Assembly: GCA_015233115.1 (NCBI GenBank)
Contig: JADFYJ010000011.1
Location: forward strand, 17,824-81,823
From: Candidatus Omnitrophota bacterium
Lineage (GTDB): Bacteria > Omnitrophota > Gorgyraeia > Zapsychrales > Zapsychraceae
Length of the DNA stretch: 64,000 nt
Direction of reading: 5' to 3'
In this document: piece by piece, positions 18,869 through 58,330 of the stretch
How positions within the stretch are numbered: the first letter of the stretch is position 1
How the letters are laid out: every line of letters begins with the position of its first letter
Program-made: the position numbers and the translations under genes
The notes under the pieces: generated by a model
Told to the model about the DNA's origin: nothing
The model's database searches: none
What the model saw: the letters and a program-made list of their open reading frames with translations, nothing else

Positions 18869-18990
18869 GCGCGCGGTTGGGACGGTTTCGCATTTAAATC
18901 GAATCCCTTCGCTCAAACAACCTTGGCGCGGCGCCAAGGAAACTCGCTCTGGGGATTCAATTTAAATGCAGACCTATTTATTGGCACGCG
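18869..18990 (+). repeat. structured element of about 122 nt, copy 1 (family of 4)
   Basis: It starts at the stop codon of the preceding gene and has long inverted arms (ggtttcgcatttaaatcgaatccc / ggggattcaatttaaatgcagacc). A central 8-bp hairpin is ccttggcg-cgg-cgccaagg. The element is bounded by the GCGCGCGGTT / GCACGCG direct motif. Confidence 0.8.
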
Positions 18991-18998
18991 TTTTTATT

Positions 18999-19075
18999 GT
19001 AGCGGCGATCTTCTGCTTGCCTTGCCGTAGTTTTAAAGCAGGCAGGATCGCCTGTAACAAAATAATCGTTTTTGT
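18999..19075 (+). repeat. REP-like hairpin element, expanded or degenerate copy
   Basis: The sequence gtagcggcgatc..[33-nt insertion]..tcgcctgtaacaaaataatcgttttt. Confidence 0.5.
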
Positions 19076-19094
19076 TTTTTAAATTTCAGAAAGT

Positions 19095-19262
19095 TTATCC
19101 CGCCAGCGAATCGTTTTGGGAATAATAGCGCGCAGTTTGGAGCGGTTTGGTTTCTTCCGTTTTGCCGACTGAAAGACCTTTGAATATTTTATCAAACGGA
19201 ATCAAAATCGCGGCAAGAGCCAGCCCCATTAATTTCAAAAAATCTTTTCTGGAAAGCTTCAT
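19095..19262 (-). CDS. small ORF (55 aa) with a Tat-like (SRKDFLK) signal peptide, possibly a remnant
   Basis: MKLSRKDFLKLMGLALAAILIPF... lies immediately downstream of the radical SAM gene on the minus strand. It is below the 60-aa cutoff of the ORF track. Confidence 0.3.
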   Translation of the reverse strand: MKLSRKDFLKLMGLALAAILIPFDKIFKGLSVGKTEETKPLQTARYYSQNDSLAG

Positions 19263-19339
19263 TTTTATGTCTTGTTTTTAAATATTGATAAGAAAAATAC
19301 AAATAGTTGTCATCCCCGAGGTTTAAATCGGGGATCCAT

Positions 19340-20308
19340 TTACTTCCACACACCAGGAATCACTTCTCCACAAAAGCCACATATTCCACTTTTTAAATTA
19401 TAACGCAAAATCTGATATCCATCACGTTCAATAATTACGTTTTTGCATTGTGGACAATAGGTGTTATTCCCTGGATGGCCTGGGACATTACCGATATAAA
19501 CATAATGCAGGCCTTTATTTTTAGCTATGTCCCAAGCTCGAGTCATAGTTTCAACTGGAGTCGGGGGTAAATTGGCTAATTTGTGCATAGGCCAGAATTT
19601 TGAAAAATGCAGAGGCACATCCGGCCCTAATTCATTCATGACCCAGGAACACAATAAATCCAGGTCTTTTTCTGCATCATTCCACGTTGGCACGATGAGG
19701 TTGACCAGCTCCATCCAAACTTTGCTTTTGTGGATAGTTTTAATGCTATCCAGAACAGGCTGTAAAGTTGCCTCCGCCATTTTTTGGTAAAATTTATCGG
19801 TGATCCCTTTGAAGTCAACTTTGATGGCATCCACGTAAGGGAAGAGATCTAGGAGTGGCTGTTGTTCAATATATCCGGCAGTAATAAAAACACTGCGTAC
19901 CTTATTTTGTTTGGCGAGTTTGGAGGTGTCATACGCGTATTCATAAAATATGACTGGATCAGAATAAGTAAACGCGATGCTTTGGCATCCAGTGCGGATG
20001 GCTTCATCAACGACGGCTTGAGGGGGCAGATCAGAGCTCTCTACTTCTTCAGGTTTGCGTTGTGAAATTTCCCAGTTTTGGCAATATTGACAATGTAGAT
20101 TGCACCCGGCTGTGGCGAGAGAAAACGCTTTGCTTCCGGGCAGAAAATGGAAAAGGGGTTTCTTTTCAATGGGATCCACATGCACAGCGCAAGGATTGCC
20201 ATAGACCAGAGTTTTTAATTCTCCGTCCAGATTCATGCGGGCTAGGCAGTTGCCTCGTTCTCCAGGATTCATCCGGCAATGCCGGGGACAAAGATGACAT
20301 TCAATCAT
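19340..20308 (-). CDS. AmmeMemoRadiSam-system-type radical SAM enzyme (PflA-like activase family)
   Basis: It has an N-terminal CxxCxxxC zinc-ribbon-like cluster, the DPIEKKPLFHF motif and the radical SAM motif CNLHCQYCQN. No AmmeMemo or AMMECR1 partner genes are in the window. Confidence 0.75.
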   Translation of the reverse strand: MIECHLCPRHCRMNPGERGNCLARMNLDGELKTLVYGNPCAVHVDPIEKKPLFHFLPGSKAFSLATAGCNLHCQYCQNWEISQRKPEEVESSDLPPQAVVDEAIRTGCQSIAFTYSDPVIFYEYAYDTSKLAKQNKVRSVFITAGYIEQQPLLDLFPYVDAIKVDFKGITDKFYQKMAEATLQPVLDSIKTIHKSKVWMELVNLIVPTWNDAEKDLDLLCSWVMNELGPDVPLHFSKFWPMHKLANLPPTPVETMTRAWDIAKNKGLHYVYIGNVPGHPGNNTYCPQCKNVIIERDGYQILRYNLKSGICGFCGEVIPGVWK

Positions 20309-20315
20309 AATTTAT

Positions 20316-20518
20316 GGCATGTAGTATGTGGTATGTCGTATGTAGTGAAACGACTGATTTAAAAAATTTAAATATATATAACAAAAGCGAATAATCATAA
20401 AAAATAATATGGTTATCTTTTCACTTTAAAAATTTTAAATAACTAATCTGATTTTTGCTCTTTTTTATTTGGTTTTGTTTTTTTTACCACATACGACATA
20501 CTATATACTACATACTGC
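20316..20518. repeat. inverted pair of GTATGTR heptamer arrays (20316-20347 and 20486-20518) bracketing a 138-nt AT-rich spacer
   Basis: The left arm is ggcatgtagtatgtggtatgtcgtatgtagtg. The right arm is accacatacgacatactatatactacatactgc, the reverse complement. Confidence 0.8.
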
Positions 20519-21833
20519 TTTTCCAATATTTCGCTGTTTGCGGTTTTATGCCATGTTGTTTCAAATTATTTTCTATTTTATCACTATCCAGTTTTTGTAC
20601 CATAATCACTTGGTGCTGATTTTGCGAAATGATGCGGATATTCGCGTTTATGGTCAGAAGAATAAAGACTATTGTGACACTGTAGAATAACCAGAACAGC
20701 CACAACTTTTGTTTTTGTTGATTGTTTATATTCTTTTTCGCCGCAGATAAGCGTTTTGCAACAGTCCCTTGAATAAGATCTTGAAATGCTCCGAAGGGGC
20801 AGAAGATTCTGCACCAAAATCTATAAATAAAAAATGACGCGATCAATAAAATTCCCACGAAAAGCATGCTCCATAAGAATTTATGTCCCGCGAATAGAAG
20901 AATATAAGGTTCCACTGTGACGACATCAGTATTACGGTACAAAAATATGAGGATAATAATGCTTAATAAAATCAAATATTTTGTTAATGAGGATTTTGGG
21001 GCGATCGGGAAAGGCCGGATGCGTAATTTTAAGCGGGCGGCATTGGCCATATCCTGCACTGCCAGAAACGGGCATATACTGGCGCAATAAACATTTTTGT
21101 AAAAAAGCAAAGTCAGAATATTTAAACTGATCAACATCCACCAAAGGGGATTATCGGAAAAATTGGGCAAATGTCCAAGGCCGATGTTTCCTAAAGTGAT
21201 GATAGAAAGCATGGAGCCTTTTAATATTCCGAGATAAAAAAGCGCTATTATCATGGTTGTCCATCTGAGGAACTGACTGGCGCGTACAACAGCCGAAATA
21301 GCGAGTATATACAATAGCAGGGGAATGGCCAGTTCCACAGCAGAAGCCGTATGATGTGTTTTATGCACTGCTGCCGCGGGGTTCATGGTTTGTTGAATTT
21401 TTTGAATGCCTTGGTCTATGGAGGACGTAAAGGCTCGGCTTGAGATGGTGGCATGGGTCATGGCATCAATGTCGTGACCGATTTCAAAGTGATCTCCGTT
21501 TGATTTTCCGATAAACTGGGCAAAAAATTTATTAAGTTGGTATCCCACATAAGAATAGGTTTCTTTATGGTCCAGCATTTTGACTTCAAGAATTTTATAA
21601 TTTTTGTCTAGGGTGACGTGAATGCGGAAATGTCCTCCGTAGCCTTGAATATCTGGGTTCATTTCATCCGTATAAAAGGAAAATCCCGTAAGATTTTTTT
21701 GTGAATCGAAAAGTTTGGTAAAAGGTTGGAGTGAGGGGGAAAACGTGTGTATTTTTTTAAAGGGATACAATATGGAGAAGCCAGTTACAAAAATGAGAAG
21801 GATTATAATTGGCCGAATAAAAGTTTTATACAT
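20508..21833 (-). CDS. NosR/NirI/NapH-like membrane protein with FMN-binding domain and two CxxxCP iron-sulfur motifs
   Basis: It has an N-terminal TM helix and an FMN_bind-like region (GYGGHFRIHV). The TM domain carries CASICPF and CRIFCPF. Confidence 0.55.
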   Translation of the reverse strand: MYKTFIRPIIILLIFVTGFSILYPFKKIHTFSPSLQPFTKLFDSQKNLTGFSFYTDEMNPDIQGYGGHFRIHVTLDKNYKILEVKMLDHKETYSYVGYQLNKFFAQFIGKSNGDHFEIGHDIDAMTHATISSRAFTSSIDQGIQKIQQTMNPAAAVHKTHHTASAVELAIPLLLYILAISAVVRASQFLRWTTMIIALFYLGILKGSMLSIITLGNIGLGHLPNFSDNPLWWMLISLNILTLLFYKNVYCASICPFLAVQDMANAARLKLRIRPFPIAPKSSLTKYLILLSIIILIFLYRNTDVVTVEPYILLFAGHKFLWSMLFVGILLIASFFIYRFWCRIFCPFGAFQDLIQGTVAKRLSAAKKNINNQQKQKLWLFWLFYSVTIVFILLTINANIRIISQNQHQVIMVQKLDSDKIENNLKQHGIKPQTAKYWKSSM

Positions 21834-24946: not shown

Positions 24947-24990
24947 GTAGGGGCGATCTCCTGATCGCCCGAAACAAAATTATCGCTTTT
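24947..24990 (+). repeat. REP-like hairpin-terminator element, direct copy
   Basis: The sequence gtaggggcgatctcctgatcgcccgaaacaaaattatcgctttt. Confidence 0.8.
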
Positions 24991-27976: not shown

Positions 27977-27982
27977 CATGTG
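27957..27982. repeat. heptamer array, GTATGTR family, overlapping the mlaF stop codon
   Basis: In the sequence agtatgtagcatgtggtatgtgg, the TAG stop lies inside a repeat unit. Confidence 0.6.
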
Positions 27983-28039
27983 GTATGTGGTAAAAGCGAA
28001 TGGTTTGAAAAACGTACAATATATTCAGGAGAATGGGAT

Positions 28040-28744
28040 ATGAAATTGAATAACGAAATAAAAATTGGTGTCATGGTGACGGTTGTGGTGTTGATCCTTT
28101 TTGGATTGACCATAAAGTCAGGAAAATTCAATTTCTCGAGTAAAGGGTATAATGTGCTGGTTGATTTTAATAATGTTGACGGGGTGAATCTTAATTCTCC
28201 GGTTATGCTGAATGGATTTGAAGTGGGCTTGGTGCAGGATATTAAGATTAAAGAAGAGGGTGGAAAAACTAAAATCGAATTAATTTTATGGCTTAAGGAC
28301 GCGGTCAAAATTCATAGAAATACCAAGGCTATTGTTAAGTTGATGGGTTTTATGGGCGAAAAATATGTCGGGTTGATCGCGGGTAACGAAGGACCGTATC
28401 TGCAGAATGGCGATATGCTCGTTGGCCAGGATCCGACGAATTTCGAAGATTTAGTTAAAAATGGAACAGAAATTTCTTTGCAGGTTAAAGAAATTACGCA
28501 AAGGATCAATCAGCTCTTGGCGGATAATGGCACTAAAATAAATAGCATAATGACCAACGCGAATGACACGGTCAAAAATGTATCATCCATTTCCGCGAAT
28601 TTGGATCAGCGGCTGAAAGTTAATGAACAGAATGTGGATGTCATTTTAGGCAGTATGCGGGGTGTTGCTGTTAATTTGGAAGAAATGAGCTCGGATTTGA
28701 AGAAAAATCCGTGGAAGATTCTTTATAAGGGCAAAGAAAAATAA
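28040..28744 (+). CDS. mlaD: MlaD-family (MCE domain) periplasmic substrate-binding protein
   Basis: It has an N-terminal TM anchor (MKLNNEIKIGVMVTVVVLILF) followed by an MCE domain. The start is at 28040, in frame with ORF 27980. Confidence 0.8.
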   Translation: MKLNNEIKIGVMVTVVVLILFGLTIKSGKFNFSSKGYNVLVDFNNVDGVNLNSPVMLNGFEVGLVQDIKIKEEGGKTKIELILWLKDAVKIHRNTKAIVKLMGFMGEKYVGLIAGNEGPYLQNGDMLVGQDPTNFEDLVKNGTEISLQVKEITQRINQLLADNGTKINSIMTNANDTVKNVSSISANLDQRLKVNEQNVDVILGSMRGVAVNLEEMSSDLKKNPWKILYKGKEK

Positions 28745-28752: not shown

Positions 28753-28875
28753 GCGCGCGGGTTGGGCGGTTTGCATTTAAACCAAATCCTTCGCTCAAAC
28801 AACCTTGGCGAAGCGCCAAGGAAACTCGCTCGGGGATTCGGTTTTAACGCCAACCTTTTGTATTGGCACGCGGTT
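28753..28875 (+). repeat. structured element of about 122 nt, copy 2
   Basis: It lies immediately after the mlaD stop codon. The central hairpin is ccttggcg-aag-cgccaagg. Confidence 0.8.
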
Positions 28876-28937: not shown

Positions 28938-30242
28938 ATGGCAAATAATGATTTAATGGATAAAATTGTTTCCCTGTGCAAACGGCGGGGATTTATATTT
29001 CAGTCTTCAGAAATTTACGGCGGTTTAGCCAATTCATGGGACTATGGTCCACTTGGCGCGGAACTCAAACGTAATGTCAAAGACGCGTGGTGGAAAGCTG
29101 TGGTCCATAACCGGGAGGACGTGGTTGGCTTGGACTCTGGCATTATCATGCACCCTAAGATTTGGGATGCGTCTGGTCATACTCAGAACTTTAATGATGT
29201 CCTGGTTGACTGTCGCAAATGTAAAGGTCGTTTCCGGGTTGATCATATTAAGGGAAAGTGTCCTAATTGTGGGTCGCATGATTTTACAGAAGGACGCGCT
29301 TTTAATTTGATGTTCAAAACTCAATTGGGTCCGGTCGACGATGGGTCTAATACTGCTTATCTCCGTCCTGAAACTGCGCAAGGGATCTTTGTTAATTTTA
29401 TTAACGTTGTAGATGCCACTCACCGAAAATTACCTTTTGGAATTGCCCAGATCGGAAAATCTTTCCGCAATGAAGTCACTGCCGGTAATTTTACTTTCCG
29501 GATGCGTGAATTTGAACAAATGGAAATTGAATATTTTACCGATCCCGAAAAAGCTGATGAATGTTTTGCGAATTGGATTAAGGAACGATTTCAGTGGTAT
29601 GTAGATTTAGGAATGAAAAAAGAAAATTTGCGTTTAAGGCCGCATGGTGCTGATGAATTAGCGCATTATGCGAAAGGCTGTCAGGATGTGGAATACTTAT
29701 TTCCTTTTGGCTGGTCTGAGATTGAAGGCATTGCGCATCGCGGAGATTTTGATTTGAAACAACACACTCAATTTTCCGGGCAAGATTTGCAATTTCATGA
29801 TCAGGTAAATAACCGTAGATTTTTCCCATATGTCATCGAACCCTCCGGCGGTGTAGATCGAGGGTTATTGGCCTTTTTGGTCGACGCGTATCATGAAGAA
29901 CAGGTGAAAGAGGATACCCGGGTCGTTTTAAAATTAAGCCGGGCTCTGGCGCCTATTAAAGTCGCGTTTTTACCATTGTTAAAGAAAAACGGCGATATTG
30001 TGGCTTTAGCTAAAAAACTGAAAAAAGATCTTCAAAATCATTTTATGTGCGTGTACGATGATTCTGCGGCCATTGGAAAATTATATAGAAGACAGGATGA
30101 AGTCGGGACATTATACTGCGTAACTGTCGACGTGCAGTCATTGGAAGATCATCAGGTCACTGTGCGTGACCGCGATACCATGCAACAGGAGCGGATCAGC
30201 TTGGATTCGCTGAAAGATTATTTATTAAAAAAAATTTTGTAA
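28938..30242 (+). CDS. glyQS: glycine--tRNA ligase, homodimeric class II type
   Basis: The N-terminus is IVSLCKRRGFIFQSSEIYGG. Class II motifs and a C-terminal anticodon-binding domain are present. Confidence 0.88.
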   Translation: MANNDLMDKIVSLCKRRGFIFQSSEIYGGLANSWDYGPLGAELKRNVKDAWWKAVVHNREDVVGLDSGIIMHPKIWDASGHTQNFNDVLVDCRKCKGRFRVDHIKGKCPNCGSHDFTEGRAFNLMFKTQLGPVDDGSNTAYLRPETAQGIFVNFINVVDATHRKLPFGIAQIGKSFRNEVTAGNFTFRMREFEQMEIEYFTDPEKADECFANWIKERFQWYVDLGMKKENLRLRPHGADELAHYAKGCQDVEYLFPFGWSEIEGIAHRGDFDLKQHTQFSGQDLQFHDQVNNRRFFPYVIEPSGGVDRGLLAFLVDAYHEEQVKEDTRVVLKLSRALAPIKVAFLPLLKKNGDIVALAKKLKKDLQNHFMCVYDDSAAIGKLYRRQDEVGTLYCVTVDVQSLEDHQVTVRDRDTMQQERISLDSLKDYLLKKIL

Positions 30243-39132: not shown

Positions 39133-39489
39133 ATGTTTAGTTTTGAAAAATTGGAAGTTTGGCAGGAATCTTTAAAGTTAGTTTTAGAGATAAATAAACT
39201 GACCAAGATTTTTCCTAAAGAAGAAATGTTTGCGTTAAGTAGTCAAATGAAACGTGCTGTATTGTCGATTTCTTTAAATATTGCAGAGGGTTCGGGTCGA
39301 TCTACAAAGTTAGATTTTAAAAGGTTTGTTCAAATAGCTATCGGTTCAACTAATGAAACAGTTACGTGTTTATTTGTAGCAAAGAATCAAAAATATATTG
39401 ATGAAATTATTTTTTCACAATTTTATTTAAAATTAGAGTCAATTTCGAAGATGTTGTATTCGATGGAAAAATATTTAAAAGTCAATTAA
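39133..39489 (+). CDS. four-helix-bundle protein (23S rRNA intervening-sequence protein family, TIGR02436-like)
   Basis: 118 aa with the family-typical LEVWQESLKLVLEINKLTKIFPKEEMFALSSQMKRAVLSISLNIAEGSGR. Confidence 0.75.
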   Translation: MFSFEKLEVWQESLKLVLEINKLTKIFPKEEMFALSSQMKRAVLSISLNIAEGSGRSTKLDFKRFVQIAIGSTNETVTCLFVAKNQKYIDEIIFSQFYLKLESISKMLYSMEKYLKVN

Positions 39490-40774: not shown

Positions 40775-43700
40775 ATGTTTTCTGCAAAAAAAGTTATTTC
40801 ATCTGTTTTACTGGTCGTTATTTCTTTAACCTTTACAGTGCCGCCGCAATATGCGCAAGCACAATTTGTATTGACGCCAAGCATTCCTGCGCCAACAAGT
40901 TACGTTCCTGTTATAATCAAGGGCGTAAATCTTAATCCGCAGAATCCGCTCAAGTTCGATTTTATTATCGACCGAGGAACTTCCTCCGCTGATTTGCCTT
41001 TGGCAAATCAAAGCGCGGAGGCTGCGTTTCGTTCCGAATCGCAGAAACTAATCCGCTACTTTTTAGCTTCTTTAACTATCCCCCAAAAAGATATGTGGGT
41101 TAACCTTTCGCCGAATGAGCCAGACAGAATTGTGCCACAAACTTTTGGTAACACAGAAATGGGCCGCGATTTATTAGCGCAAGATTTTATGCTGAAACAA
41201 CTGACAGCCAGTCTCATGAGCCCGGATGGAGAAGTGGGACGAAAGTTTTGGGATAAAGTCTACGCCAAAATTTACGAAACTCCCTCTCCCCTTCGGGGAG
41301 AGGGTAGGGTGAGGGGTTTAGAAATCCCCACCGACATTTTTAACAAAGTCTGGATTGTCCCATCTAAAGCCAAAATTTATGAACATGAAAAAGGTGCGTT
41401 TATTACAGATACAGCGTTTAAAGTCATGACAGAGCGCGACTATGTCGCGCAGACACAAGACACAGGACACAAGTCACAAGAAGGACAAGATGCTGTGACC
41501 TTACAAATAGTCAAAGATGTTATCATCCCCGCTATTGAACAAGAAGTCAACCATGGCAAAACTTTTGCTAACTTGCGCCAGATCTATAATTCTCTTATCT
41601 TAGCCATGTGGTACAAAGAAAAAGTTAAGAAAAGCGTGCTCGGCCAGGCTTACTCTAATAAAGAGAAGACTTCTGGTCTAGAAGTCGCCTCAAATGAAAA
41701 ACAAAAGATCTACCAACAATATCTCGACGCTTTCCGTAAAGGCGCGAGTAATGCGATTAAAGAAGAATATGATCCCAATACCCAACAAATTGTAGCCCGG
41801 AAATATTTCTCTGGCGGTATTCAAGCAGATCAGGCACAAATTTCATTAGCTACAAAAGAGGAAATGGACGCGGCTATGAAAGCTGCCATTGCCACGGAGA
41901 ATGTTGCGACGGTAATTCAGTTTGCAGGAGCCAAAGCCCCTGACGCGGCGATGACCAGCGAAATTGTTAAAGAAATAGTTAAAAGTTTTGTTGAAGATTT
42001 TAAAAGAAAGCGTCTACCTGGTGGTTTTAATTTTTCTGTTGATGCCCAACAAAGCGGAGAAGATGTTATAGTTACAATTGAACAAACTACCAGGTCTCTG
42101 CCCCCGATACTAATTCAAGATTTTTATCACTATGTTAGCTGGTTGACAAATAAATTTACTTCTCCAATTAAATTGACACCGATGGATAGTCTGAGTGCGT
42201 ATATGCGTAAATTTAAAATTTCCGACGCGGCGATGATGTCTGTAGAGAAATACAATCGGGTGATAAAAGATGCTGAGCAAGCTTGGGGAGGAGAATTGGA
42301 GCGAGCGGATCAATTGGTTGAGTTTTTGAAAAATCGATTTAATCCTGAAAAAGCTTTGGAATCAGGAGCGATTTTTATTCCCAGGGCTGTGGTGCAGAAT
42401 GAAGCGCGGATGGGTTTAACGCCTATTGGGATTAAACTGTTAAAAAGTTTAGGCATTAAAAATGAAATTTATGTCGAAGCTGCAGCAGGAATAAATCGGC
42501 AGAGTGGCAAGGTTTATTTCACGGATGCGTATTACATAAATGCTGGAGCAAAAATTTTGTCCCATGATGAATTTTATAAACGGGCGGAACAAGCAGATAA
42601 AAAAGTTGTGGTGAGCATTAAGGAACCGCAAGAATCAGAATACAAATTATTAAAAAACGCGCTGTTATTTACTTATTTGCATTTGGCGGATAGCCCTAAG
42701 TTGACTCAGGATTTGTTAAATTTATTAGCAACTGGTGTGGCGTATGAAACTATTGCTTTTAAAACGCCAGAGGGGATAACCAGAACTCCGGTGTTAGCTC
42801 CTGCCAGTATTGCCGCTGGGTGGGTCAGCGCGGCCCGTACTGCCGCATTTTTTGGGGGGATAATTAATGACGAAAGACAGCGTATATTTGCAGAATCATT
42901 ACAGTATTATGCCACTTCTGAAAATTTCCCTCTTAACTTGCGGAAAAGTTTAGAAGGAATAACTGTAACTGTTCTGGGCGGCGGAGTTGCCGGAGAAAGC
43001 GCAGCCATAACTCTCGCGAAAATGGGAGCAAAGGTTTATATCACAGAAGTTAATCCTAAAAGGATCCTGGAGTTAGAAAAGATAATCACTTCACAAGGAT
43101 TAGGATTAGCGATTACAGTTTTAAAAAGAGATCTTTCTGTTCCACGGGTCTTTGACCAATTTCGAACAGAATTGTTAGAATCATCCGCGATAATTGGCGC
43201 CGTTCTTATCCCCGGAGCCAAGGCGCCGAAAGAGATAGATGAATCAACATATGAAGCGCTGGTCAAAGGAGGAAAATTTAAATTTTTTGCTGATATAGCG
43301 ATTGATCAAGGCGGAAATAACGTCAGAAGTGTCGCGCGTAAATATCAAGATGGCTGGCCTATGGATGAAAATCGAGTCGGACAATTTACTGTGACAAACA
43401 TGCCCAGCGTTGTTCCTTTGCAGGTTTCATTTGGTTTGGAACGAGCCAAATTAGCGTATTTAGTAGCGCTTTTGATGGGCACACCAGAAGCGGTCAAGGC
43501 GTTTCCCGAATTAGAGCAGGGTGTGAACATCCGTAATGGCCAGATCACGAATAAGCCGGTCGGGGAAGCGGTTAGAATGGATGCTGTTTCATTAAAAGAA
43601 GCAGATGAAGCAATCGCGACAGTTGATGCGGCGATGACCGTAGACCCGTTTAATCTTACTACAAAAAATGTGGCGGAATGGGATAATATTCAACGGGCGA

Positions 43701-45784
43701 TAACTGATGATGTTATTTCTAACCGGGTCATTCCTTTAATTAAAGGCAGTTATTTGAAGGGGGTAGAAAAAAATCAGTTAATAAACACAATTCAAAAACT
43801 ACGGGAAATATCTTCGGTTGATTTTGAAAAAAGCAAAAAAGATAACCCGCTTCATCACAGTTTTATAGTTCTGGATATTGTGTTACAGATTGCTTTTGGA
43901 AAAAAATTATTCTATCCGGAAATTAAAAAACTGGCAGCTTTAGCCATTCTGCATGATTTAGGTTATGGCGCGTTAGAAGAAAGCAAAGGTCGTATCAGTA
44001 GTGGTAAGATTAAACAAATGATTAAGGATTATGAGCTTCAAAAGGATAGTTTATCCAAGGAACTGAGGGAGGAAAAAGTAGCGGCAATAAAAAAAGCCAT
44101 TCAAGGTGCTATTGATGCTAGAAATGAGCATATGGAAAAAGGCGTTTTTATAGCTCAAATATTGTTAGAGAAATTTAATAAAGAAGATTCTGATCCGGAC
44201 GATAAGTTTAGTCCTGAAGATATTAAGGAGATATGTGCGTTAGTCGGGATGCATGATAATCCTGGTATTGCTAAGACGTATGAAACTGAAGAATATAAAC
44301 CATATATATCTGGATCAGCTGATAAATTACTTATTGGTAAAGATAAGCAACTAGCGCTTATTTTTCGTGAAGCAGACAGATTGTGGATGCTTTCCTATGA
44401 AGGATTAATAAAGGATTTAATGGATAGTTTGCTTAAAGGTGACAACCCTCTCTCTGTTGAGAAACAGCTCGTCAATAATATCGCTGTATTTAGTGATGAA
44501 CGAAAGTCATACGATGCGACAGGTAAAGATTATGGCAATTTTAAAGGCGATACTTTCATTAGAACTGACACAGGTTATAAAATATATAAAGATTTTATCC
44601 AGGCATGGCAAAAGATAATCAAAGATCATGCTGCTTTAGTGAAGGCTTTTAAAATCCAAAGGTTTGATTTTAATAGAGCGACCGATACTGCGATGACTGC
44701 ATTTGAAGAGAAGAGACAGACTTTTAGAGATAATTTATTAGCTATAGTGCAAAAGGGCTGTCAACCTAGTGGACTCTCCATATTGAGAAAGCAAATAACA
44801 GAGTTTATCATTTTAGAACAAGATTCGCCGTATCTCTCCAGATTTTTATATAATTTTTTAAATGATCTAGTTGAATTGCATCAGTCTTTAAATGCTGACA
44901 AAGCCGATGCTTTATATTCCTTATTTCACAATTTAAATGACTGGGTGGCAGGAATAAAAACTAGTAATGGAGCCATCTTAATAGATTATTGGGTTGAGAC
45001 AGAAAACGGAAAAATGAAATTAGAAAAAAATAAATCATGGATCTATTCTCGCGATATAGTGATTAGGGATACGATTTTCTTAATTTTGTTACGTAATTTA
45101 TTGATCAACATGCCAATGACTGCAGATTTTAAAGAAACAAGTGCCGGAAAAATTCCTGATATGAAATCGGTTCTGGAAGTCGATAAAAATTTTAAGATGC
45201 AGCTTAATTTGCTTAAAGGAATTAATCCTCAAAAATTAAGCAGTCTTAAGAAAAATTTTGCAGGAGCCATATCGTCAATAAAGGCATGGTCAGAGGTTTC
45301 TGAAGTATGGGATAACGTTGAAGGCGTTGTCTCAATCGTCTCGTCTCCTTGTCAAGAATCCGCGAAACAATTGAATGATTTTTATGCAAGCATTCCCGAC
45401 AAGGCGATGACAGTGGATGAGGAAAATAAAACAGACGGTGGTATCGACTTAAACGCCGCGCAGTTTTCCGTTGGAGTTGATAAACAGGGAAAAGGGTTTG
45501 AATATAATGTGGATCCGGCTATGTTACAGCAATTCATCAACGCGCCGGGGGTTAACGCGATTATTACCAATATTCAGCCGATTACCAATTTGCCGGTGTT
45601 TTTGGGGTTGGCAGTGGGGAAACCCCGTAAAATCGCTTATGCGATCACGGGGTCGGAAAAAACTGATCAAGTCGCGCTTCAGCTTTCTTTATTGGATGTC
45701 ATGGATAGCTTGACGATAAGGTTCGGGTATGATACATTTATTTTGAAAAATAAGGAGGTCGATTGCCAACAATTTTGGTCGTAG
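40775..45784 (+). CDS. giant secreted modular protein (1669 aa), paralogue of 9745..16095, with alanine-dehydrogenase/PNT-like and HD phosphohydrolase domains
   Basis: The signal peptide ends in PQYAQAQ. The N-terminal domain and the C-terminal 50 aa are shared with giant gene 1. The centre has AlaDH-like blocks (FTYLHLA, GVAYETIAF, LGGGVAGESAA) and HD motifs (LHDLGYG, GMHDNPG). Confidence 0.8.
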   Translation: MFSAKKVISSVLLVVISLTFTVPPQYAQAQFVLTPSIPAPTSYVPVIIKGVNLNPQNPLKFDFIIDRGTSSADLPLANQSAEAAFRSESQKLIRYFLASLTIPQKDMWVNLSPNEPDRIVPQTFGNTEMGRDLLAQDFMLKQLTASLMSPDGEVGRKFWDKVYAKIYETPSPLRGEGRVRGLEIPTDIFNKVWIVPSKAKIYEHEKGAFITDTAFKVMTERDYVAQTQDTGHKSQEGQDAVTLQIVKDVIIPAIEQEVNHGKTFANLRQIYNSLILAMWYKEKVKKSVLGQAYSNKEKTSGLEVASNEKQKIYQQYLDAFRKGASNAIKEEYDPNTQQIVARKYFSGGIQADQAQISLATKEEMDAAMKAAIATENVATVIQFAGAKAPDAAMTSEIVKEIVKSFVEDFKRKRLPGGFNFSVDAQQSGEDVIVTIEQTTRSLPPILIQDFYHYVSWLTNKFTSPIKLTPMDSLSAYMRKFKISDAAMMSVEKYNRVIKDAEQAWGGELERADQLVEFLKNRFNPEKALESGAIFIPRAVVQNEARMGLTPIGIKLLKSLGIKNEIYVEAAAGINRQSGKVYFTDAYYINAGAKILSHDEFYKRAEQADKKVVVSIKEPQESEYKLLKNALLFTYLHLADSPKLTQDLLNLLATGVAYETIAFKTPEGITRTPVLAPASIAAGWVSAARTAAFFGGIINDERQRIFAESLQYYATSENFPLNLRKSLEGITVTVLGGGVAGESAAITLAKMGAKVYITEVNPKRILELEKIITSQGLGLAITVLKRDLSVPRVFDQFRTELLESSAIIGAVLIPGAKAPKEIDESTYEALVKGGKFKFFADIAIDQGGNNVRSVARKYQDGWPMDENRVGQFTVTNMPSVVPLQVSFGLERAKLAYLVALLMGTPEAVKAFPELEQGVNIRNGQITNKPVGEAVRMDAVSLKEADEAIATVDAAMTVDPFNLTTKNVAEWDNIQRAITDDVISNRVIPLIKGSYLKGVEKNQLINTIQKLREISSVDFEKSKKDNPLHHSFIVLDIVLQIAFGKKLFYPEIKKLAALAILHDLGYGALEESKGRISSGKIKQMIKDYELQKDSLSKELREEKVAAIKKAIQGAIDARNEHMEKGVFIAQILLEKFNKEDSDPDDKFSPEDIKEICALVGMHDNPGIAKTYETEEYKPYISGSADKLLIGKDKQLALIFREADRLWMLSYEGLIKDLMDSLLKGDNPLSVEKQLVNNIAVFSDERKSYDATGKDYGNFKGDTFIRTDTGYKIYKDFIQAWQKIIKDHAALVKAFKIQRFDFNRATDTAMTAFEEKRQTFRDNLLAIVQKGCQPSGLSILRKQITEFIILEQDSPYLSRFLYNFLNDLVELHQSLNADKADALYSLFHNLNDWVAGIKTSNGAILIDYWVETENGKMKLEKNKSWIYSRDIVIRDTIFLILLRNLLINMPMTADFKETSAGKIPDMKSVLEVDKNFKMQLNLLKGINPQKLSSLKKNFAGAISSIKAWSEVSEVWDNVEGVVSIVSSPCQESAKQLNDFYASIPDKAMTVDEENKTDGGIDLNAAQFSVGVDKQGKGFEYNVDPAMLQQFINAPGVNAIITNIQPITNLPVFLGLAVGKPRKIAYAITGSEKTDQVALQLSLLDVMDSLTIRFGYDTFILKNKEVDCQQFWS
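41452..41490. repeat. in-frame heptamer array (ACACAAG family) inside giant gene 2
   Basis: The sequence cagacacaagacacaggacacaagtcacaagaaggacaag encodes TQDTGHKSQEGQD in a linker. Confidence 0.6.
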
Positions 45785-52555: not shown

Positions 52556-52561
52556 TATAAG

Positions 52562-52743: not shown

Positions 52744-54039
52744 ATGATTTCCAAAATCTATCAAGACACAATTCAACGTACTGAAAAAGTCGGGTTGATC
52801 AACTTGGGCTGTGCCCGTAATTTGGTTGATGGCCAGACGATATTAGGCGGATTGAAAAAAGCCGGTTATCAGATCGTTGAACCGGATGCGGCTGATGTCG
52901 TTATCATTAATACCTGCGGTTTTATTCAAGACGCTAAGCAAGAATCGATTGATACGATTTTAGACGTTCTGGAATTAAAGAAACAGGGCAAAGTGAAAAA
53001 AGTAATTGTGGCCGGGTGTCTTACGGAACGGTATAAAAATGAATTGGCTGAAGAATTTAAGGGTGAAGTCGATGCTTTTGTTGGCGTACAACAGTTGAAT
53101 GAAACCGATTTTATGGATCAGATGTTATTAACGCCGGATTATTCCGCGTATGTAAAAATTTGTGAGAGCTGCTATAACCTTTGCCATTTTTGTATCATTC
53201 CTAAGATTAAGGGAAAATTTATGTCCCGTTCCATGGAGGATATTGTCCAAGAAGTGCGAAATCTGGATCAAAAGGGTGTTAAAGAGATCAATGTGATCGG
53301 CCAGGACATTACCGCGTACGGCATGGATCTTTACGGCCAAAAGAAATTGGCTGAATTGTTAATCCAAATTGACAAAGCCTGTCCAAATATCCGGTGGATT
53401 CGGCTGCTTTACACGTATCCTTCACACATTACCGACGAGCTTTTAAATGTCATGGCAGAACATAAGAGGGTTTGTAAATATATTGATCTTCCTTTACAGC
53501 ATGTCAGTGATAAAATACTAAAGAATATGAACCGTAAGATTACGCGTCAGGAAACGGAAGATTTGGTTAGAAAGATTCGGGCTAAGGTTCCACACGCGGT
53601 GATCCGTACCACATTTATTGTGGGTTTACCCGGCGAGACTGAACAGGAATTTAACGAGTTGTGCGCTTTTGTGAAAGAATTTAAATTCGAACGGATGGGC
53701 GTATTTGCATATTCTCCCGAAGAAGGAACGACTGCGTATGATATGCCGGAACAGGTTCCGGATGAGGTTAAAACCCAACGTTTGGATAAGCTGATGGCTT
53801 TGCAGCAGGATATTTCTAAAGAAGTAATGCGGCAATTTGTCGGCCAGACAGTGGAAGTGCTCATTGAAGAACCGCAAGACCAAGAGGGAAAATTTTATTT
53901 AGGCCGCAGCCCATATGATGCGCCTGAAGTGGATGGTAATGTTCACGTGTATTCGACAAAAGCTTTAAAACCCGGGGATTTTGTTACAGTGCGTATTACT
54001 GACGCGACGGAATATGATTTAGCGGGAGAAACGGCATGA
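52744..54039 (+). CDS. rimO: ribosomal protein S12 methylthiotransferase RimO (MiaB-family radical SAM)
   Basis: It has the N-terminal MTTase domain (GLINLGCARNLVDGQ), the radical SAM motif CYNLCHFC and a C-terminal TRAM domain. Confidence 0.75.
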   Translation: MISKIYQDTIQRTEKVGLINLGCARNLVDGQTILGGLKKAGYQIVEPDAADVVIINTCGFIQDAKQESIDTILDVLELKKQGKVKKVIVAGCLTERYKNELAEEFKGEVDAFVGVQQLNETDFMDQMLLTPDYSAYVKICESCYNLCHFCIIPKIKGKFMSRSMEDIVQEVRNLDQKGVKEINVIGQDITAYGMDLYGQKKLAELLIQIDKACPNIRWIRLLYTYPSHITDELLNVMAEHKRVCKYIDLPLQHVSDKILKNMNRKITRQETEDLVRKIRAKVPHAVIRTTFIVGLPGETEQEFNELCAFVKEFKFERMGVFAYSPEEGTTAYDMPEQVPDEVKTQRLDKLMALQQDISKEVMRQFVGQTVEVLIEEPQDQEGKFYLGRSPYDAPEVDGNVHVYSTKALKPGDFVTVRITDATEYDLAGETA

Positions 54040-54617
54040 ATTTACCAAATATTTTAACCCTTTTGCGTTTTTTTTTGACGGGCATATTTATTTTCTTTGC
54101 CTGTCAAAATAGTTTGTCGTCAGCTTTTTTTGCTTTATTAGCGTTTAGCGCGGCTGCGCTGACAGATTATTTTGACGGGTATTACGCGCGGAAACATAAT
54201 CTGATTACTGATTTTGGAAAATTAATGGACCCGATCGCGGATAAATTTTTAATGCTTTCGGCATTCGGCATTTTCGCGGTTCAACAAATTTTTCCAATGT
54301 GGATGTTTGTGGTCATTGCCATCCGGGAGATTGGGATTACGGTATGGCGCATTATCGCGGCACACCGGGGCATTACGTTAGCCGCGGAAAAAACCGGAAA
54401 AATTAAAACAGTCTGTCAGATTGCGGTCGCGATATTTATTTTATTTGTGCATATTCTTGTCAGGGCAGGGATGTTCCCTCAAAGAAACGCGGATTTAATG
54501 GCGGTCTTGATATGTTTGATTTGGGTTTGGATGGGTCTGGTGGTTGTTTTGACTGTATGGTCGGGGGCGGAAGTTTTGAGGAAGTCAAATGAAAAAGTCG
54601 TAGGGGCGATCACCTGA
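54036..54617 (+). CDS. pgsA: CDP-diacylglycerol--glycerol-3-phosphate 3-phosphatidyltransferase
   Basis: It carries the CDP-alcohol phosphatidyltransferase motif (DYFDGYYARK...GKLMDPIADK). ATGA overlap with rimO. Confidence 0.8.
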   Translation: MNLPNILTLLRFFLTGIFIFFACQNSLSSAFFALLAFSAAALTDYFDGYYARKHNLITDFGKLMDPIADKFLMLSAFGIFAVQQIFPMWMFVVIAIREIGITVWRIIAAHRGITLAAEKTGKIKTVCQIAVAIFILFVHILVRAGMFPQRNADLMAVLICLIWVWMGLVVVLTVWSGAEVLRKSNEKVVGAIT

Positions 54618-54644
54618 TCGCCCGTAACAAAATTATCGCTTTTA
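54600..54644 (+). repeat. REP-like hairpin-terminator element, direct copy (loop variant CACC)
   Basis: The sequence gtaggggcgatcacctgatcgcccgtaacaaaattatcgctttt. Confidence 0.8.
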
Positions 54645-54678: not shown

Positions 54679-54800
54679 GCGCGCGGTAGGGCGGTTTGCA
54701 TTTAAACCAAATCCTTCGCTCAAACAACCTTGGCGAAGCGCCAAGGAAACTCGCTCTGGGATTCGGTTTAAACACAAACCTTGTGTTTGGGCACGCGGTT
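54679..54800 (+). repeat. structured element of about 122 nt, copy 3
   Basis: The sequence gcgcgcggtagggcggtttgcatttaaaccaaatccttcgctcaaacaaccttggcgaagcgccaagg...gggcacgcggtt. Confidence 0.8.
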
Positions 54801-54847: not shown

Positions 54848-55303
54848 ATGCCAGATAAACTTATTCGATTAATTTCTACTTTTTTTTATACAGGATATTT
54901 TCCAGTCGGGTCCGGGACATTTGCCAGTTTTATCGCTATGCTGCTGGCTTTATCTTTGAGCAGTCATTTGATTGCATATGTCGCGGTTGGTACAATATTC
55001 ACCATTTTAGGATTCGTTTACAGCGGGCGCATGGAATTTCTCGAGGGAAAAAAAGATCCGGGGTGTGTGGTCATTGATGAAGTGGCTGGCATATTCTTGA
55101 CATTTTTTTTGTTACCGTTAAAATATCCAGTAATTATTACCGCGTTTTTCTTATTTCGGGCTATGGATATGTTTAAATTATATCCGGCCAATAAATTTGA
55201 GCAGTTAGGCGGAGGATTAGGCATCATGATGGATGACGTCTTCGCCGGGTTTTATGCTAATATAGTCATGCAGATTGCCATTCGTTTGGCGCATATAAAT
55301 TAA
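54848..55303 (+). CDS. pgpA: phosphatidylglycerophosphatase A
   Basis: The N-terminus LISTFFYTGYFPVGSGTFASF is typical of PgpA. Confidence 0.8.
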   Translation: MPDKLIRLISTFFYTGYFPVGSGTFASFIAMLLALSLSSHLIAYVAVGTIFTILGFVYSGRMEFLEGKKDPGCVVIDEVAGIFLTFFLLPLKYPVIITAFFLFRAMDMFKLYPANKFEQLGGGLGIMMDDVFAGFYANIVMQIAIRLAHIN

Positions 55304-56095: not shown

Positions 56096-56137
56096 AGTAC
56101 AAAGTAGAGAGTACAAAGTAGAGAGTACAGAGTAGAG
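56096..56137. repeat. three tandem copies of a 14-mer (AGTACAAAGTAGAG)
   Basis: The sequence agtacaaagtagagagtacaaagtagagagtacagagtagag. Confidence 0.75.
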
Positions 56138-56207
56138 TTTAGATGATAGGGAAAAATTATAAGCTAGATAATAACGACCCGGCAGGAAAATTCCAGCCGG
56201 GTTTTTT

Positions 56208-56672
56208 CTATAAGAATTCTTTTAAAAGTACAAGTGCCTGTTTCGCTGCTTGTTTTTTGATTTCCAAGCGGCTTCCTTTAAACTTACATTTCAGGCAAAG
56301 TGTGCCATAATCCATGGATAGGGCGATAAAGGTGAGTCCAACAGGTTTGGTTTTTGTGCCTCCGGTTGGTCCAGCGATACCGGTTATGGCTAAACCAAAG
56401 TCTGTTTTAAATAGATTTCTGACGTTTTGGGCCATGATAGTCGCGGTTTCTTCGCTGACTGCGCCGTGTTTTTTAATGATTTTAACTGGCACTTTCAGGA
56501 TTTTGATTTTGGCTTCATTGCTGTAAGCAATAATAGAGCATTTTAAAAAAGCAGAACTGCCCGAAATATTGGTCAAAAGATTCGTGACCAATCCTCCGGT
56601 ACAGGACTCCGCCAGACTTAAGGTTTTTTTCGTATCTATAAGAATTTCAGCAACTTTTCGATCTAAGAACAT
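56208..56672 (-). CDS. CinA C-terminal domain protein (PncC-type nicotinamide-nucleotide amidohydrolase)
   Basis: It carries the motif LSLAESCTGGLVTNLLTNISGSS. Confidence 0.8.
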   Translation of the reverse strand: MFLDRKVAEILIDTKKTLSLAESCTGGLVTNLLTNISGSSAFLKCSIIAYSNEAKIKILKVPVKIIKKHGAVSEETATIMAQNVRNLFKTDFGLAITGIAGPTGGTKTKPVGLTFIALSMDYGTLCLKCKFKGSRLEIKKQAAKQALVLLKEFL

Positions 56673-56758
56673 GAAGCTATTATATGAAGGGACAAAAGCC
56701 TTGACAAGGGCTAATATTTAAAATATATTACAACATCATTTTAGAAATAAGCTTATAA

Positions 56759-56971
56759 GTGTATGTAGTATATGGCATGTAGTATGTAGTGAAAAAATTT
56801 AAAAATGCCAAATCAAAAATGATAGGATTAAGTCGCGATCCGTATTAAGGTAGAACAAATAAAAAAACTAAAACATTACAAGTGATTGCAAATCGCAATT
56901 ATATTGCTTTTGGTTTTTTATTATAAATTTTCGCTTTTACTACATACAACATACTACGGGCTACATACTAA
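56759..56971. repeat. inverted pair of GTATGTR heptamer arrays (56759-56791 and 56938-56971) enclosing the ribBA promoter region
   Basis: The left arm is gtgtatgtagtatatggcatgtagtatgtagtg. The right arm is tttactacatacaacatactacgggctacatacta. Confidence 0.8.
56876..56904 (+). promoter_or_regulatory. candidate ribBA promoter (TTACAA, 17-nt spacer, TTATAT) with the embedded palindrome ATTGCAAATCGCAAT
   Basis: The palindrome at 56885-56899 overlaps the promoter spacer. No FMN riboswitch is recognisable here. Confidence 0.4.
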
Positions 56972-56998
56972 CAAAATTTATTAATTAGTGAGGGAAAA

Positions 56999-58198
56999 AT
57001 GTTTAATACTATTGAAGATGTTTTGCAGGATCTCCGTGAAGGAAAAATGGTTGTGGTCATGGATGACGAAGGCCGCGAGAATGAAGGCGATGTTTTATGC
57101 GCGGCGCAGTTTATTACTCCGGAAAAGATCAATTTTATGGCGCGTTATGCCCGCGGGTTGGTTTGTATTCCTATGACTGAAGACCGTTTAAATGAATTAG
57201 ATCTTCATCCCATGAAAGTGAATTTACACAGCCGGCATCAACGATGTGATACTGGCTGGGCGATATCTGTGGATGCGGCTCATGGTATAACAACTGGGAT
57301 TTCAGCTGGCGATCGGGCTTATACTACTCAGGTGTTAATTGATCCTAAATCTAAATCCGGCGACTTGATTACTCCCGGCCATTTGTTTCCATTACGCGCG
57401 GTTAAAGGCGGGGTTATGGTTCGCGCTGGACATACTGAAGCATCAGTTGACTTGACCCGTTTGGCTGGACTATATCCTGCCGGGGTTATTTGCGAGATTA
57501 TGAATGATGACGGAACAATGGCCCGCACGGAACAATTAACCCAGTTTGCTAAAAAACATCATTTAAAGATCTGTACGATTGATAGTCTGATTGAATATTT
57601 ACAGCAAAAAGAAAAGTTGATTGAGCGTATTGCTGAAACCAATATGCCGACCAGACATGGCGATTTCAAATTGTATGCTTATGAAACCACAGTTGACGAT
57701 TTGGTGCATATGGCATTAGTGATGGGTAATATTAATGATCATAAACCTGTGTTAGTCCGCGTTCAATCTGAATGTTTGACTGGCGACGTATTTGGTTCAT
57801 TGCGTTGTGATTGCAACGGCCAGTTGGAACATGCTTTTGAAGCGATTGCCAAAGAGGGCCGGGGCATTTTGTTATACATGAGACAAGAAGGCCGCGGAAT
57901 TGGATTAGCCAATAAATTGCGCGCGTATCATTTGCAGGATAATGGGATGGATACTGTGGAAGCTAATGAAGCTTTAGGGTTTGGCCCGGATTTACGAAAA
58001 TATGGTATGGGCGCGCAGATTTTGGCGGATTTAGGCGTAAAAGATTTGCGTTTATTGACTAATAATCCTCGTAAGATTGTTGGGTTAGAAGGTTTTGGTC
58101 TCAAAGTGGTGGAACGCGTCAGTTTACAGGTTCCGACTCACAAAGCCAATGAAAAATACATGAAGACCAAAAAAGAAAAATTGGGGCATATTCTATAA
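56999..58198 (+). CDS. ribBA: bifunctional 3,4-dihydroxy-2-butanone-4-phosphate synthase / GTP cyclohydrolase II
   Basis: 399 aa. It has an N-terminal DHBP synthase region (RENEGDVLCAAQFITPEKINFMA) and a C-terminal GTP cyclohydrolase II region (CDCNGQLE). Confidence 0.92.
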   Translation: MFNTIEDVLQDLREGKMVVVMDDEGRENEGDVLCAAQFITPEKINFMARYARGLVCIPMTEDRLNELDLHPMKVNLHSRHQRCDTGWAISVDAAHGITTGISAGDRAYTTQVLIDPKSKSGDLITPGHLFPLRAVKGGVMVRAGHTEASVDLTRLAGLYPAGVICEIMNDDGTMARTEQLTQFAKKHHLKICTIDSLIEYLQQKEKLIERIAETNMPTRHGDFKLYAYETTVDDLVHMALVMGNINDHKPVLVRVQSECLTGDVFGSLRCDCNGQLEHAFEAIAKEGRGILLYMRQEGRGIGLANKLRAYHLQDNGMDTVEANEALGFGPDLRKYGMGAQILADLGVKDLRLLTNNPRKIVGLEGFGLKVVERVSLQVPTHKANEKYMKTKKEKLGHIL

Positions 58199-58207
58199 AC
58201 AGTTATA

Positions 58208-58330
58208 GCGCGCGGTTGGGACGGTTTGCATTAAAACCAAATCCCTCGCTCAAACAGCAGCTCCGAAGCGGAGCTGAACTCGCTCTAGGATTCGGTTTTA
58301 ACGCCAACCTTAGTTTTTTTACGCGCGGTT
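58208..58330 (+). repeat. structured element of about 122 nt, copy 4 (covariant central hairpin)
   Basis: It has the same arms as copies 1 to 3. The central hairpin is replaced by cagctccg-aag-cggagctg, a different stem sequence with the same geometry. Confidence 0.8.

Follow-up and report, generated by a model that had tools for sequence, protein, structure and literature searches.

A dispersed foldback repeat with a conserved central module in Candidatus Omnitrophota and other bacterial lineages

We identified four copies of a structured element in a 64,000-nt stretch of DNA from Candidatus Omnitrophota bacterium (assembly GCA_015233115.1, contig JADFYJ010000011.1; this whole stretch is the window, and positions follow its numbering). 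A first-pass annotation of the sequence had described four plus-strand copies with one shared layout. Alignment confirms them, and a covariance model (R1) run over the 64 kb with filters off returns exactly these four matches (67–78 bits); the next match, at 17 bits, is an unrelated REP doublet. The copies and their parts have the following coordinates.

18869-18990, plus strand: copy 1, whole element (77.3 bits), directly 3' of the stop codon of a 168-aa open reading frame (ORF, 18362-18868) and followed by TTTTTATT
28753-28875, plus strand: copy 2, whole element (76.9 bits), 8 nt past the stop codon of the MlaD gene (27980-28744) and 5' of a class II aminoacyl-tRNA synthetase gene (28938-30242)
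54679-54800, plus strand: copy 3, whole element (78 bits), between a CDP-alcohol phosphatidyltransferase gene (54036-54617) and PgpA (54848-55303), with a REP at 54600 upstream
58208-58330, plus strand: copy 4, whole element with a swapped hairpin (67.5 bits), 9 nt past the stop codon of ribBA (56999-58198) and followed by a REP at 58337 and ribH (58408-58890)
18909-18919 (copy 1), 28791-28801 (copy 2), 54716-54726 (copy 3) and 58246-58256 (copy 4), plus strand: 5' core TCGCTCAAACA
18941-18949 (copy 1), 28823-28831 (copy 2), 54748-54756 (copy 3) and 58277-58285 (copy 4), plus strand: 3' core AACTCGCTC
18921-18939 (copy 1, CGG loop), 28803-28821 (copy 2, AAG loop), 54728-54746 (copy 3, AAG loop) and 58258-58276 (copy 4), plus strand: central 8-bp hairpin
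~18884-18907 with 18952-18974, plus strand: paired arms of copy 1
28768-28789 (GGTTTGCATTTAAACCAAATCC) with 28834-28855, plus strand: paired left and right arms of copy 2
~54693-54714 with 54758-54779, plus strand: paired arms of copy 3
~58223-58244 with 58288-58309, plus strand: paired arms of copy 4

Each copy is a long imperfect palindrome of ~122 nt. From 5' to 3', the four aligned copies contain a head (GCGCGCGG), a 7-nt stretch, a left arm of ~22 nt, TCGCTCAAACA, an 8-bp hairpin with a 3-nt loop, AACTCGCTC and the right arm, followed by a T-rich stretch of 12–13 nt and the tail (G/T)(C/A)CGCG(GTT). The arms pair over ~22 positions with 2–4 mismatches in all four copies, in agreement with the ~22-bp stem that had been proposed for them. 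Copies 1–3 carry the hairpin CCTTGGCG-(AAG/CGG)-CGCCAAGG, and copy 4 carries CAGCTCCG-AAG-CGGAGCTG. The latter had been called entirely different; five of its eight pairs are changed, all with compensation, while the other three are the same as in copies 1–3. Compensated differences also occur in the arms, such as a T-A pair in copy 3 that is A-T in copy 4 (and T.T in copy 2).

The head and tail share a CGCGGTT repeat, which the first-pass annotation had offered (GCGCGCGGTT/CGCGGTT) as a possible duplicated target. This repeat is common to all four copies, is missing at the empty ribBA-ribH site of a relative (L072, described below), and pairs as a 4–6-bp GC clamp that closes the structure. 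It therefore looks like a part of the element rather than a target-site duplication.

Pairwise identity among the four copies ranges from 77 to 93%, with copies 2 and 3 at 93% and the other pairs at 77–87%. The 60-nt flanks of the copies are unrelated, with 12–21 of 60 positions matching, which is the random level. The elements begin 0, 8, 61 and 9 nt past the stop codon of the upstream gene in copies 1–4, so that the reported proximity to stop codons holds for three copies and copy 3 lies farther away. T-runs are found 3' of copies 1 and 4, with none after copies 2 and 3.

To place the element in other genomes, we scanned one genome per species (596 Gb) for the pattern TCGCTCAAACA-N16-26-AACTCGCTC. 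The exact 20-nt core was found at 35 genome loci, against ~12 expected by chance (596 Gb x 2 strands x 11 spacings / 4^20, assuming equal base frequencies). At 21 of these loci, from 11 genomes of Omnitrophota, Bacillota and Actinomycetota, the core flanks a hairpin inside long complementary arms whose sequences are unrelated between lineages. The carriers are four other Omnitrophota metagenome-assembled genomes (MAGs), three Clostridia MAGs (one with ten copies), a Lachnospiraceae MAG, Tumebacillus lipolyticus, an Eggerthellaceae MAG and an Acidimicrobiia MAG. The remaining 14 loci look like chance matches in coding sequence or simple repeats, without hairpin or arm pairing. R1 separates the two groups, with 45–79 bits for structured matches and no more than 30 bits for those without structure; two structured copies that have diverged fall below the former range (37.3 bits for the second copy of L027 and 25.9 bits for the second copy of L066). 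A metagenome scan added ~10 further structured loci, and overall the structured core recurs in at least 12 lineages. In viral contigs the exact core had no matches and a relaxed core had 16, all unstructured. The element is thus not phage-borne.

Arm sequences are entirely different from one lineage to the next, and even among the copies of a single genome. In the Omnitrophica UBA2337 copies (two in L027 and one in L032), core and pairing are kept while arms and hairpin have diverged. The upstream gene has the same sense as the element in 17 of 23 cases (8/8 in Omnitrophota), and few copies lie between divergent genes. Two of the UBA2337 copies begin 3–5 nt past tRNA genes (tRNA-Met and tRNA-Pro). 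In other genomes, too, the copies adjoin housekeeping genes, among them plsY, der, prs, fumarase, pyruvate kinase and tilS. We found no protein common to the neighbourhoods of different loci, within or across genomes.

Copies occur in several arrangements: solitary, as inverted pairs (L058 and L027), embedded in a composite repeat (a Clostridia MAG) and as a tandem array (Tumebacillus). In L027, the inverted copies at 3899-3982 (plus) and 4833-4917 (minus) have core and hairpin in common and unrelated arms; the first begins 3 nt past tRNA-Met, and the pair encloses a single 215-aa gene with a MUG113 (GIY-YIG-like) domain. Tumebacillus lipolyticus KCTC 32289, a cultivable carrier, has at least three tandem units of ~270–279 bp (L012, 5600-6523), each combining a canonical-core module with a variant one (CTCGAC-TCGCGC...GCGCGA-ACTCGCTC). 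This array adjoins a (ACACTCAC)n microsatellite at the contig end. In the Clostridia MAG CAKSFP01 (L003, L015, L021, L029, L033 and L034), the element lies inside a composite repeat of ~300 bp with further conserved blocks, such as TATATTTGCAAAATCCATAGCCGTAGGGCGTGTTTTGCAAATAT. At the base of its arms is a second module with CTCG opposite CTCG (GGCTCGGTG / CCCCCTCGCC).

Covariation was counted over 33 distinct sequences from at least 12 lineages, in gapped and ungapped alignment versions. In the arm helix, 84% of cells form a standard pair, against 48% in shuffles, and none of 500 shuffles reaches the observed value. Double-sided changes are present in all 19 arm pairs, and the arm covariation score is 0.83, against at most 0.27 with partners slid. 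In the central segment, 28 different sequences occur; the majority form a Watson-Crick hairpin of 5–9 bp, and five have only 3–4 predicted Watson-Crick pairs. The covariation within the window had earlier been taken as textbook evidence of selection on the fold. The fold is real and its helices covary, as seen mainly in these 33 sequences and not in copy 4 alone. Selection at the RNA level does not follow, because foldback DNA repeats also show arm covariation and because G.T and A.C mismatches are equally frequent (64 of each).

The two core strands can be set against each other. Antiparallel, they oppose T.C, C.T, G-C, C-G, T.C, C.T, A.C, A.A and A.A on the strand that carries the search pattern, and G.A, A.G, G-C, C-G, G.A, A.G, G.U, U.U and U.U on the complementary strand. 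RNAalifold pairs the GC/CG at the middle of the two TCGCTC stretches. Coordinated changes in three diverged copies support this facing register: in L066 and L027, 5'-core position 2 and its opposite, position 5 of the 3'-core TCGCTC hexamer, have jointly become A-T or T-A, and in L011 and L066, G.G or C-G replaces the A.A between 5'-core position 8 (TCGCTCAAACA) and 3'-core position 2 (AACTCGCTC, as written). Judged from sequence, the complementary-strand cores would form a two-fold symmetric helix in which a tandem G.A block in 5'-YGAR-3' context lies on either side of a GC step. The second module type of Tumebacillus keeps two facing GAGCG strands with different linkers. The best explanation is that the central module (TCGCTCAAACA, a variable hairpin and AACTCGCTC) is the conserved functional part, rather than the arms.

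The two strands of the element differ in their folding. The minus (GAGCGA) strand folds better, at -53 to -57 kcal/mol (z -5.9 to -7.5), than the plus strand, at -43 to -52 kcal/mol (z -2.0 to -5.4). Outside the core, pyrimidine-pyrimidine mismatches (T.C and C.T) number 76 on the pattern strand against 23 purine-purine mismatches (G.A and A.G), and the commonest tandem is TC/TC. Weighted by lineage, the counts are 36.6 and 11.2, with the excess in 12 lineages and the reverse in 3 of 18. Some hairpins pair well only on the minus strand (GCGAAGC in L030 and CGAG/CGAG in L058), and the Clostridia-family hairpin keeps a G.U on the pattern (TCGCTC) strand. Wobble pairs are uninformative as to strand: an earlier count gave 33 against 51, and the later tie leaves no wobble signature for a single RNA strand. 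Local GC skew is confounded with gene orientation. The window is leading strand throughout (GC skew +0.08 to +0.24) with nearly all genes on the plus strand; the pattern strand is the lagging-strand template there, and the better-folding strand is the leading-strand template. A terminator scan matched only the central GC hairpin followed by TTGTTTG (UUGUUUG) on the minus strand, and no consistent promoter was found on that strand. A promoter-like TTGACT-17-TAAAAT (10 of 12 matches) at 58398-58426 on the minus strand points left into the REP and copy 4 and could give rise to antisense transcripts of the element; sites of this kind are no more numerous than the regional chance count.

Comparison with relatives shows that the copies turn over. 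The closest relative (L072, ribBA 92% identical) is syntenic with window positions 52–64 kb and has no copies in 20 kb. Its ribBA-ribH gap is 46 nt long and holds only a REP, where the window has the element between the ribBA stop codon and the REP. In its pgsA-pgpA gap, a 107-aa ORF takes the place of the element. Relatives at 75–77% identity are also without copies, and the ribBA-ribH site is empty in L073–L076. The copies, missing at comparable sites in these genomes, are therefore gained or lost on short time scales, and the insertion polymorphism that had been proposed for a synteny comparison is present at two sites in a close relative. In L073 (77% identity), the ribBA-ribH gap (1608-1742) is an AT-rich tract with short tandem repeats (AAATTTCAAATTTCAAATTTCAAAT), without element or REP; this spacer is thus a hot spot for different insertions.

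Database and literature comparisons returned no known counterpart. Rfam 15 matches only two tRNAs in the window at the gathering threshold; at E<=10, copy 4 yields nothing above noise (mir-578, 15 bits; PreQ1, 12 bits), and at E<=1, ten homologous loci show no match to the element beyond the generic hairpin mir-H1 (29 against 97 bits). No Rfam match was found to self-cleaving ribozyme classes (hammerhead, twister, twister-sister, pistol, hatchet, HDV-like and hairpin). Full-text literature searches with either sense of the core sequences turned up nothing but primers and unrelated matches, and searches on tandem-GA/GAGCGA repeats and on Omnitrophota structured RNAs returned nothing relevant. 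Several resemblances serve as leads only, each extending over just 5–8 nt: the GAGC repeats bound by adeno-associated virus Rep, lambda/rrn boxA (CGCUC...), the Mycobacterium tuberculosis NusA-bound GAACUCAAUAG, the MazF-mt7 site UCGCU and L3 of the HDV ribozyme.

The element resembles REP, BIME and REPIN sequences in being a short, non-coding hairpin repeat that occurs in multiple copies between genes, chiefly at 3' ends or in intercistronic spacers. Like them it is biased in orientation, not phage-borne and apparently co-transcribed. Tandem clustering, as in the Tumebacillus array, is possible in both. A REP, however, is a palindrome of 20–40 nt or an inverted doublet, whereas the element is a single long foldback of ~120 nt with an asymmetric conserved centre instead of a conserved end, no GTAG beside the hairpin foot, and no cognate RAYT gene among the window ORFs scanned. 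With ERIC/IRU sequences (127 bp) it shares length, imperfect palindromy and location in transcribed intergenic regions, and an E. coli ERIC copy has GCGAG...GAGCGAA around its central stem. The order of the motifs differs, ERIC is limited to Enterobacterales and Vibrionaceae and conserved over its full length, and R1 scores an E. coli ERIC copy (L093) at no more than 4.5 bits.

Correia/NEMIS, RUP, BOX and other MITEs are likewise non-autonomous, ~100–150 nt long, near genes, able to form mRNA hairpins, and present or absent between relatives. Classical MITEs have fixed terminal inverted repeats matching an insertion sequence, and target-site duplications. In the element the arms vary freely between lineages and the centre is fixed; its ends carry no inverted repeats of fixed sequence, its one direct repeat (CGCGGTT) does not vary from copy to copy, and no related insertion sequence was found. 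Integron attC sites (VCR, 123–126 nt) are imperfect palindromes of the same size, directly 3' of ORFs and in one orientation. They function in folded single-stranded form, with unpaired or mismatched positions and a terminal hairpin that varies, but are conserved at their ends and not at their centre. The ends of the element (GCGCGCGG... and ...CACGCGGTT(A/T)) lack the R''/R' boxes (RYYYAAC...GTTRRRY), with no inverted AAC/GTT boxes, and its neighbours (mlaFED, the aminoacyl-tRNA synthetase gene, pgsA/pgpA and ribBA/ribH) are syntenic with relatives and are not promoter-less cassettes. Tandem sheared G.A motifs of structured RNAs and single-stranded DNA (k-turn-like modules and d(GCGAAGC) mini-hairpins) resemble the core and many arm mismatches, which on the complementary strand stand in the 5'-YGAR-3' context characteristic of such pairs, as read from sequence only; the 3-nt bulge of the k-turn is lacking. 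The element thus behaves like a REP yet is a member of none of these families, as REP/REPIN, ERIC, classical MITE and attC each fail at least one tested defining feature. It belongs to a previously undescribed REP/MITE-like family of hairpin repeats with a cross-phylum core.

We favour the reading that the element is a non-autonomous, REP/MITE-like foldback repeat whose central module is read as a folded single strand by a trans-acting enzyme, and which is co-transcribed as a 3' or intercistronic stem-loop (probability roughly 0.45). Placement in the REP/ERIC/MITE-like class follows from copies that are intergenic, mostly 3' of a gene, rarely between divergent genes, tolerated in operons, absent from phages and patchy between relatives. 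The conserved centre with free arms, unusual for that class, favours a foldback repeat with a central module. Elements of this family, ~120 nt long, would be gained and lost in intergenic spacers directly downstream of genes. One strand would fold so that the two conserved stretches are opposed at the foot of the hairpin, and this folded module would be the recognition site of an enzyme encoded elsewhere – most likely a transposase or nuclease acting on hairpin single strands – that propagates or maintains the family. After insertion, transcripts of the upstream gene would extend through the element, which would form a long stem-loop at their 3' end or between cistrons and could affect termination or 3'-end stability. 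The repetition, the fold, the covariation, the cross-phylum core, the facing cores, the presence/absence polymorphism, the orientation bias and the lack of a neighbouring partner gene are observed; the mechanism of mobility, the recognition of a single strand and the effects on mRNA are what we infer from them.

Several points weigh against this reading. The mobilising enzyme is hypothetical, and neither fixed-sequence terminal inverted repeats, nor a target-site duplication, nor an autonomous element was found. The polymorphism covers two sites and is measured against diverged relatives, which does not set the exact boundaries of the element. The UBA2337 pattern of kept core and pairing could also mean in-place purifying selection on a host function. 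Finally, orientation favours the transcribed pyrimidine strand (UCGCUC) and mismatch chemistry favours the purine strand (GAGCGA), and these are opposite strands.

A host-beneficial, cis-acting RNA in the sense of the upstream gene is an explanation that we regard as rather unlikely. The RNA would form a long stem-loop in the 3' untranslated region or between cistrons. Its pyrimidine-rich internal loop (UCGCUCAAACA / AACUCGCUC) would bind a conserved RNA-binding protein or nuclease, and the RNA would serve as a terminator, insulator, processing site or 3'-end stabiliser. Such a role fits the shared sense with the upstream gene, the UBA2337 copies just past the two tRNA genes, the start of three of four window copies 0–9 nt past stop codons, the T-runs 3' of copies 1 and 4, and the retention of structure and core in diverged copies of one genome. 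It fits less well with sites that are empty in relatives and with copies that lie between divergent genes or antisense to the upstream gene. On the transcribed strand, moreover, G.U is not above A.C, the core gives only U.C, C.U, A.C and A.A, and the fold is the weaker one (z -2 to -5.4 against -5.9 to -7.5); a U-tract follows only two of the four copies, and a strong terminator would be harmful at copy 4, inside the rib operon. If the functional RNA were instead read from the other strand (GAGCGAGUU-hairpin-UGUUUGAGCGA), it could be a small antisense RNA, a terminator acting in antisense or in both directions, or a ribozyme or protein-binding RNA of a new kind, with a double tandem-G.A core. 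Such an RNA would account for the better fold of the minus strand and for a core with ideal sheared tandem G.A contexts (CGAG/CGAA and UGAG/CGAG) plus G.U and U.U. The 3.3-fold excess of purine-purine mismatches on that strand outside the core, the hairpins that pair well only there and the terminator-like GC hairpin with UUGUUUG point the same way. This RNA would nonetheless be antisense to the upstream gene at most loci, with no consistent minus-strand promoter found; the G.U of the conserved Clostridia-family hairpin lies on the opposite strand, neither a known ribozyme nor an Rfam family matches, and multi-copy, patchy spread is atypical of a small-RNA gene. We consider it improbable.

Slightly less credit goes to a single-stranded DNA recombination or transposition site that folds like attC or an IS200/IS605/RAYT hairpin, with a recombinase acting on the strand complementary to the upstream gene. 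Length, imperfect palindromy, post-ORF position and uniform orientation are as in attC/VCR arrays, and the better-folding strand is the leading-strand template, a placement known for the folding strand in chromosomal integrons. The REP family in the window, the Y1_Tnp gene of L072 and the MUG113 gene between the inverted copies of L027 are also compatible with such a site. However, the element has neither R''/R' boxes (RYYYAAC/GTTRRRY) nor GTAG, its flanking genes are syntenic housekeeping genes rather than cassettes, its centre is conserved and not its ends, no integrase lies nearby save an ordinary XerC/D-type gene far downstream in L072, and the genome's RAYT-type partner already has its own REP. 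Last, the first-pass annotation had allowed for recent duplicates without divergence outside copy 4. Segmental duplication or chance resemblance, with an unconstrained fold, is suggested by the 93% identity of copies 2 and 3, but is already refuted by the lower identity of the other pairs, the unrelated flanks, the compensated changes in arms and hairpin, and the same core within different arms and hairpins in other phyla, where structured and unstructured matches are separated in score; its probability is negligible. Among the roles first listed for the element (a small RNA from a 3' untranslated region, a protein-binding insulator or a structured MITE), the MITE-like one fits best, though terminal inverted repeats, a target-site duplication and a cognate insertion sequence are wanting.

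The foldback-repeat reading leaves room for a broader, more tentative one, which is possible though doubtful: that the central module is an undescribed cross-phylum nucleic-acid motif, in which facing GAGCGA strands form a symmetric double tandem-G.A helix with a free hairpin cap and a free closing stem, at the core of a new system. This system might be a hairpin-specific transposition or recombination of single-stranded DNA, carried out by a hypothetical enzyme, or else a class of ribozymes or protein-binding RNAs that is new. Its dispersed copies would then include the repeats of Omnitrophota and of Clostridia as well as the tandem array of Tumebacillus.

REP, ERIC and Correia repeats are normally lineage-specific, and conservation is found at their ends because these are what the transposase of that lineage reads. 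The element reverses this pattern: arms and hairpin are free, and an asymmetric 20-nt centre is identical from Omnitrophota to Clostridia and Actinomycetota, its halves covarying as if stacked in a symmetric non-canonical helix. A fixed centre with free arms therefore implies a conserved partner that reads a folded single strand. Identification of that partner would establish either a new way in which bacterial repeats are mobilised or an RNA class that is itself new. The element is unannotated and absent from Rfam, lies inside operons of uncultured phyla, and may shape 3' ends and operon polarity.

The genes beside the window copies are housekeeping genes: a spermidine-synthase-like protein and the 168-aa ORF at copy 1; MlaE/F/D upstream of copy 2 and the class II aminoacyl-tRNA synthetase, earlier named murA, downstream; the CDP-alcohol phosphatidyltransferase (pgsA) and PgpA at copy 3; and ribBA and ribH at copy 4, inside the rib operon. 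For the ribBA product, the closest proteins come from Candidatus Omnitrophota MAGs. A Pfam scan of 30 of the 49 window ORFs turned up no transposase, RAYT or reverse transcriptase (ribBA and the syntenic 52–64 kb stretch were checked separately), and locus-neighbourhood comparisons found no transposase near any copy.

The window also holds a separate REP family (GTAG + GGGCGATC-N4-GATCGCCC), with eight copies where none is expected by chance; two of them adjoin the element.

2609-2632 (plus), 2686-2709 (minus), 4410-4433 (minus), 4515-4538 (plus), 8197-8220 (plus), 24947-24970 (plus), 54600-54623 (plus) and 58337-58360 (plus): the eight REP copies
54600-54627, plus strand: REP upstream of copy 3, a member of the eight-copy family
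58337-58364, plus strand: REP 3' of copy 4 (GTAG + GGGCGATC-ACCT-GATCGCCC), of the separate family and not a part of the element

Two element copies had been reported to be followed by a REP-like terminator. A canonical REP stands 3' of copy 4 only, as that of copy 3 lies upstream. Copy 1 is followed at 18997-19060 by a REP variant (GTAGCGGCGATC...GATCGCCTGTAAC) whose loop is enlarged by a nested hairpin (CTGCTTGCC...GCAGGCAG). The pairs 2609/2686 and 4410/4515 are inverted, as in REPIN-like doublets, and GTAG is on the plus strand (the lagging-strand template) in 6 of the 8 copies. In L072 (GCA_015233195.1, 7872-8528), the gap between BaxI and CinA contains a Y1_Tnp gene (PF01797, RAYT/IS200-like) and two small ORFs, one of them ORF6N; in the window this gap is only 119 nt long. 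The Y1_Tnp gene is likely the cognate of the GTAG REP family and most plausibly serves those REPs.

Elsewhere in the window, a gene for a 23S rRNA-intervening-sequence protein (PF05635) is located at 39133-39489, away from any window rRNA gene. The plus strand also carries two very long ORFs, at 9745-16095 (2116 aa) and 40775-45784 (1669 aa).

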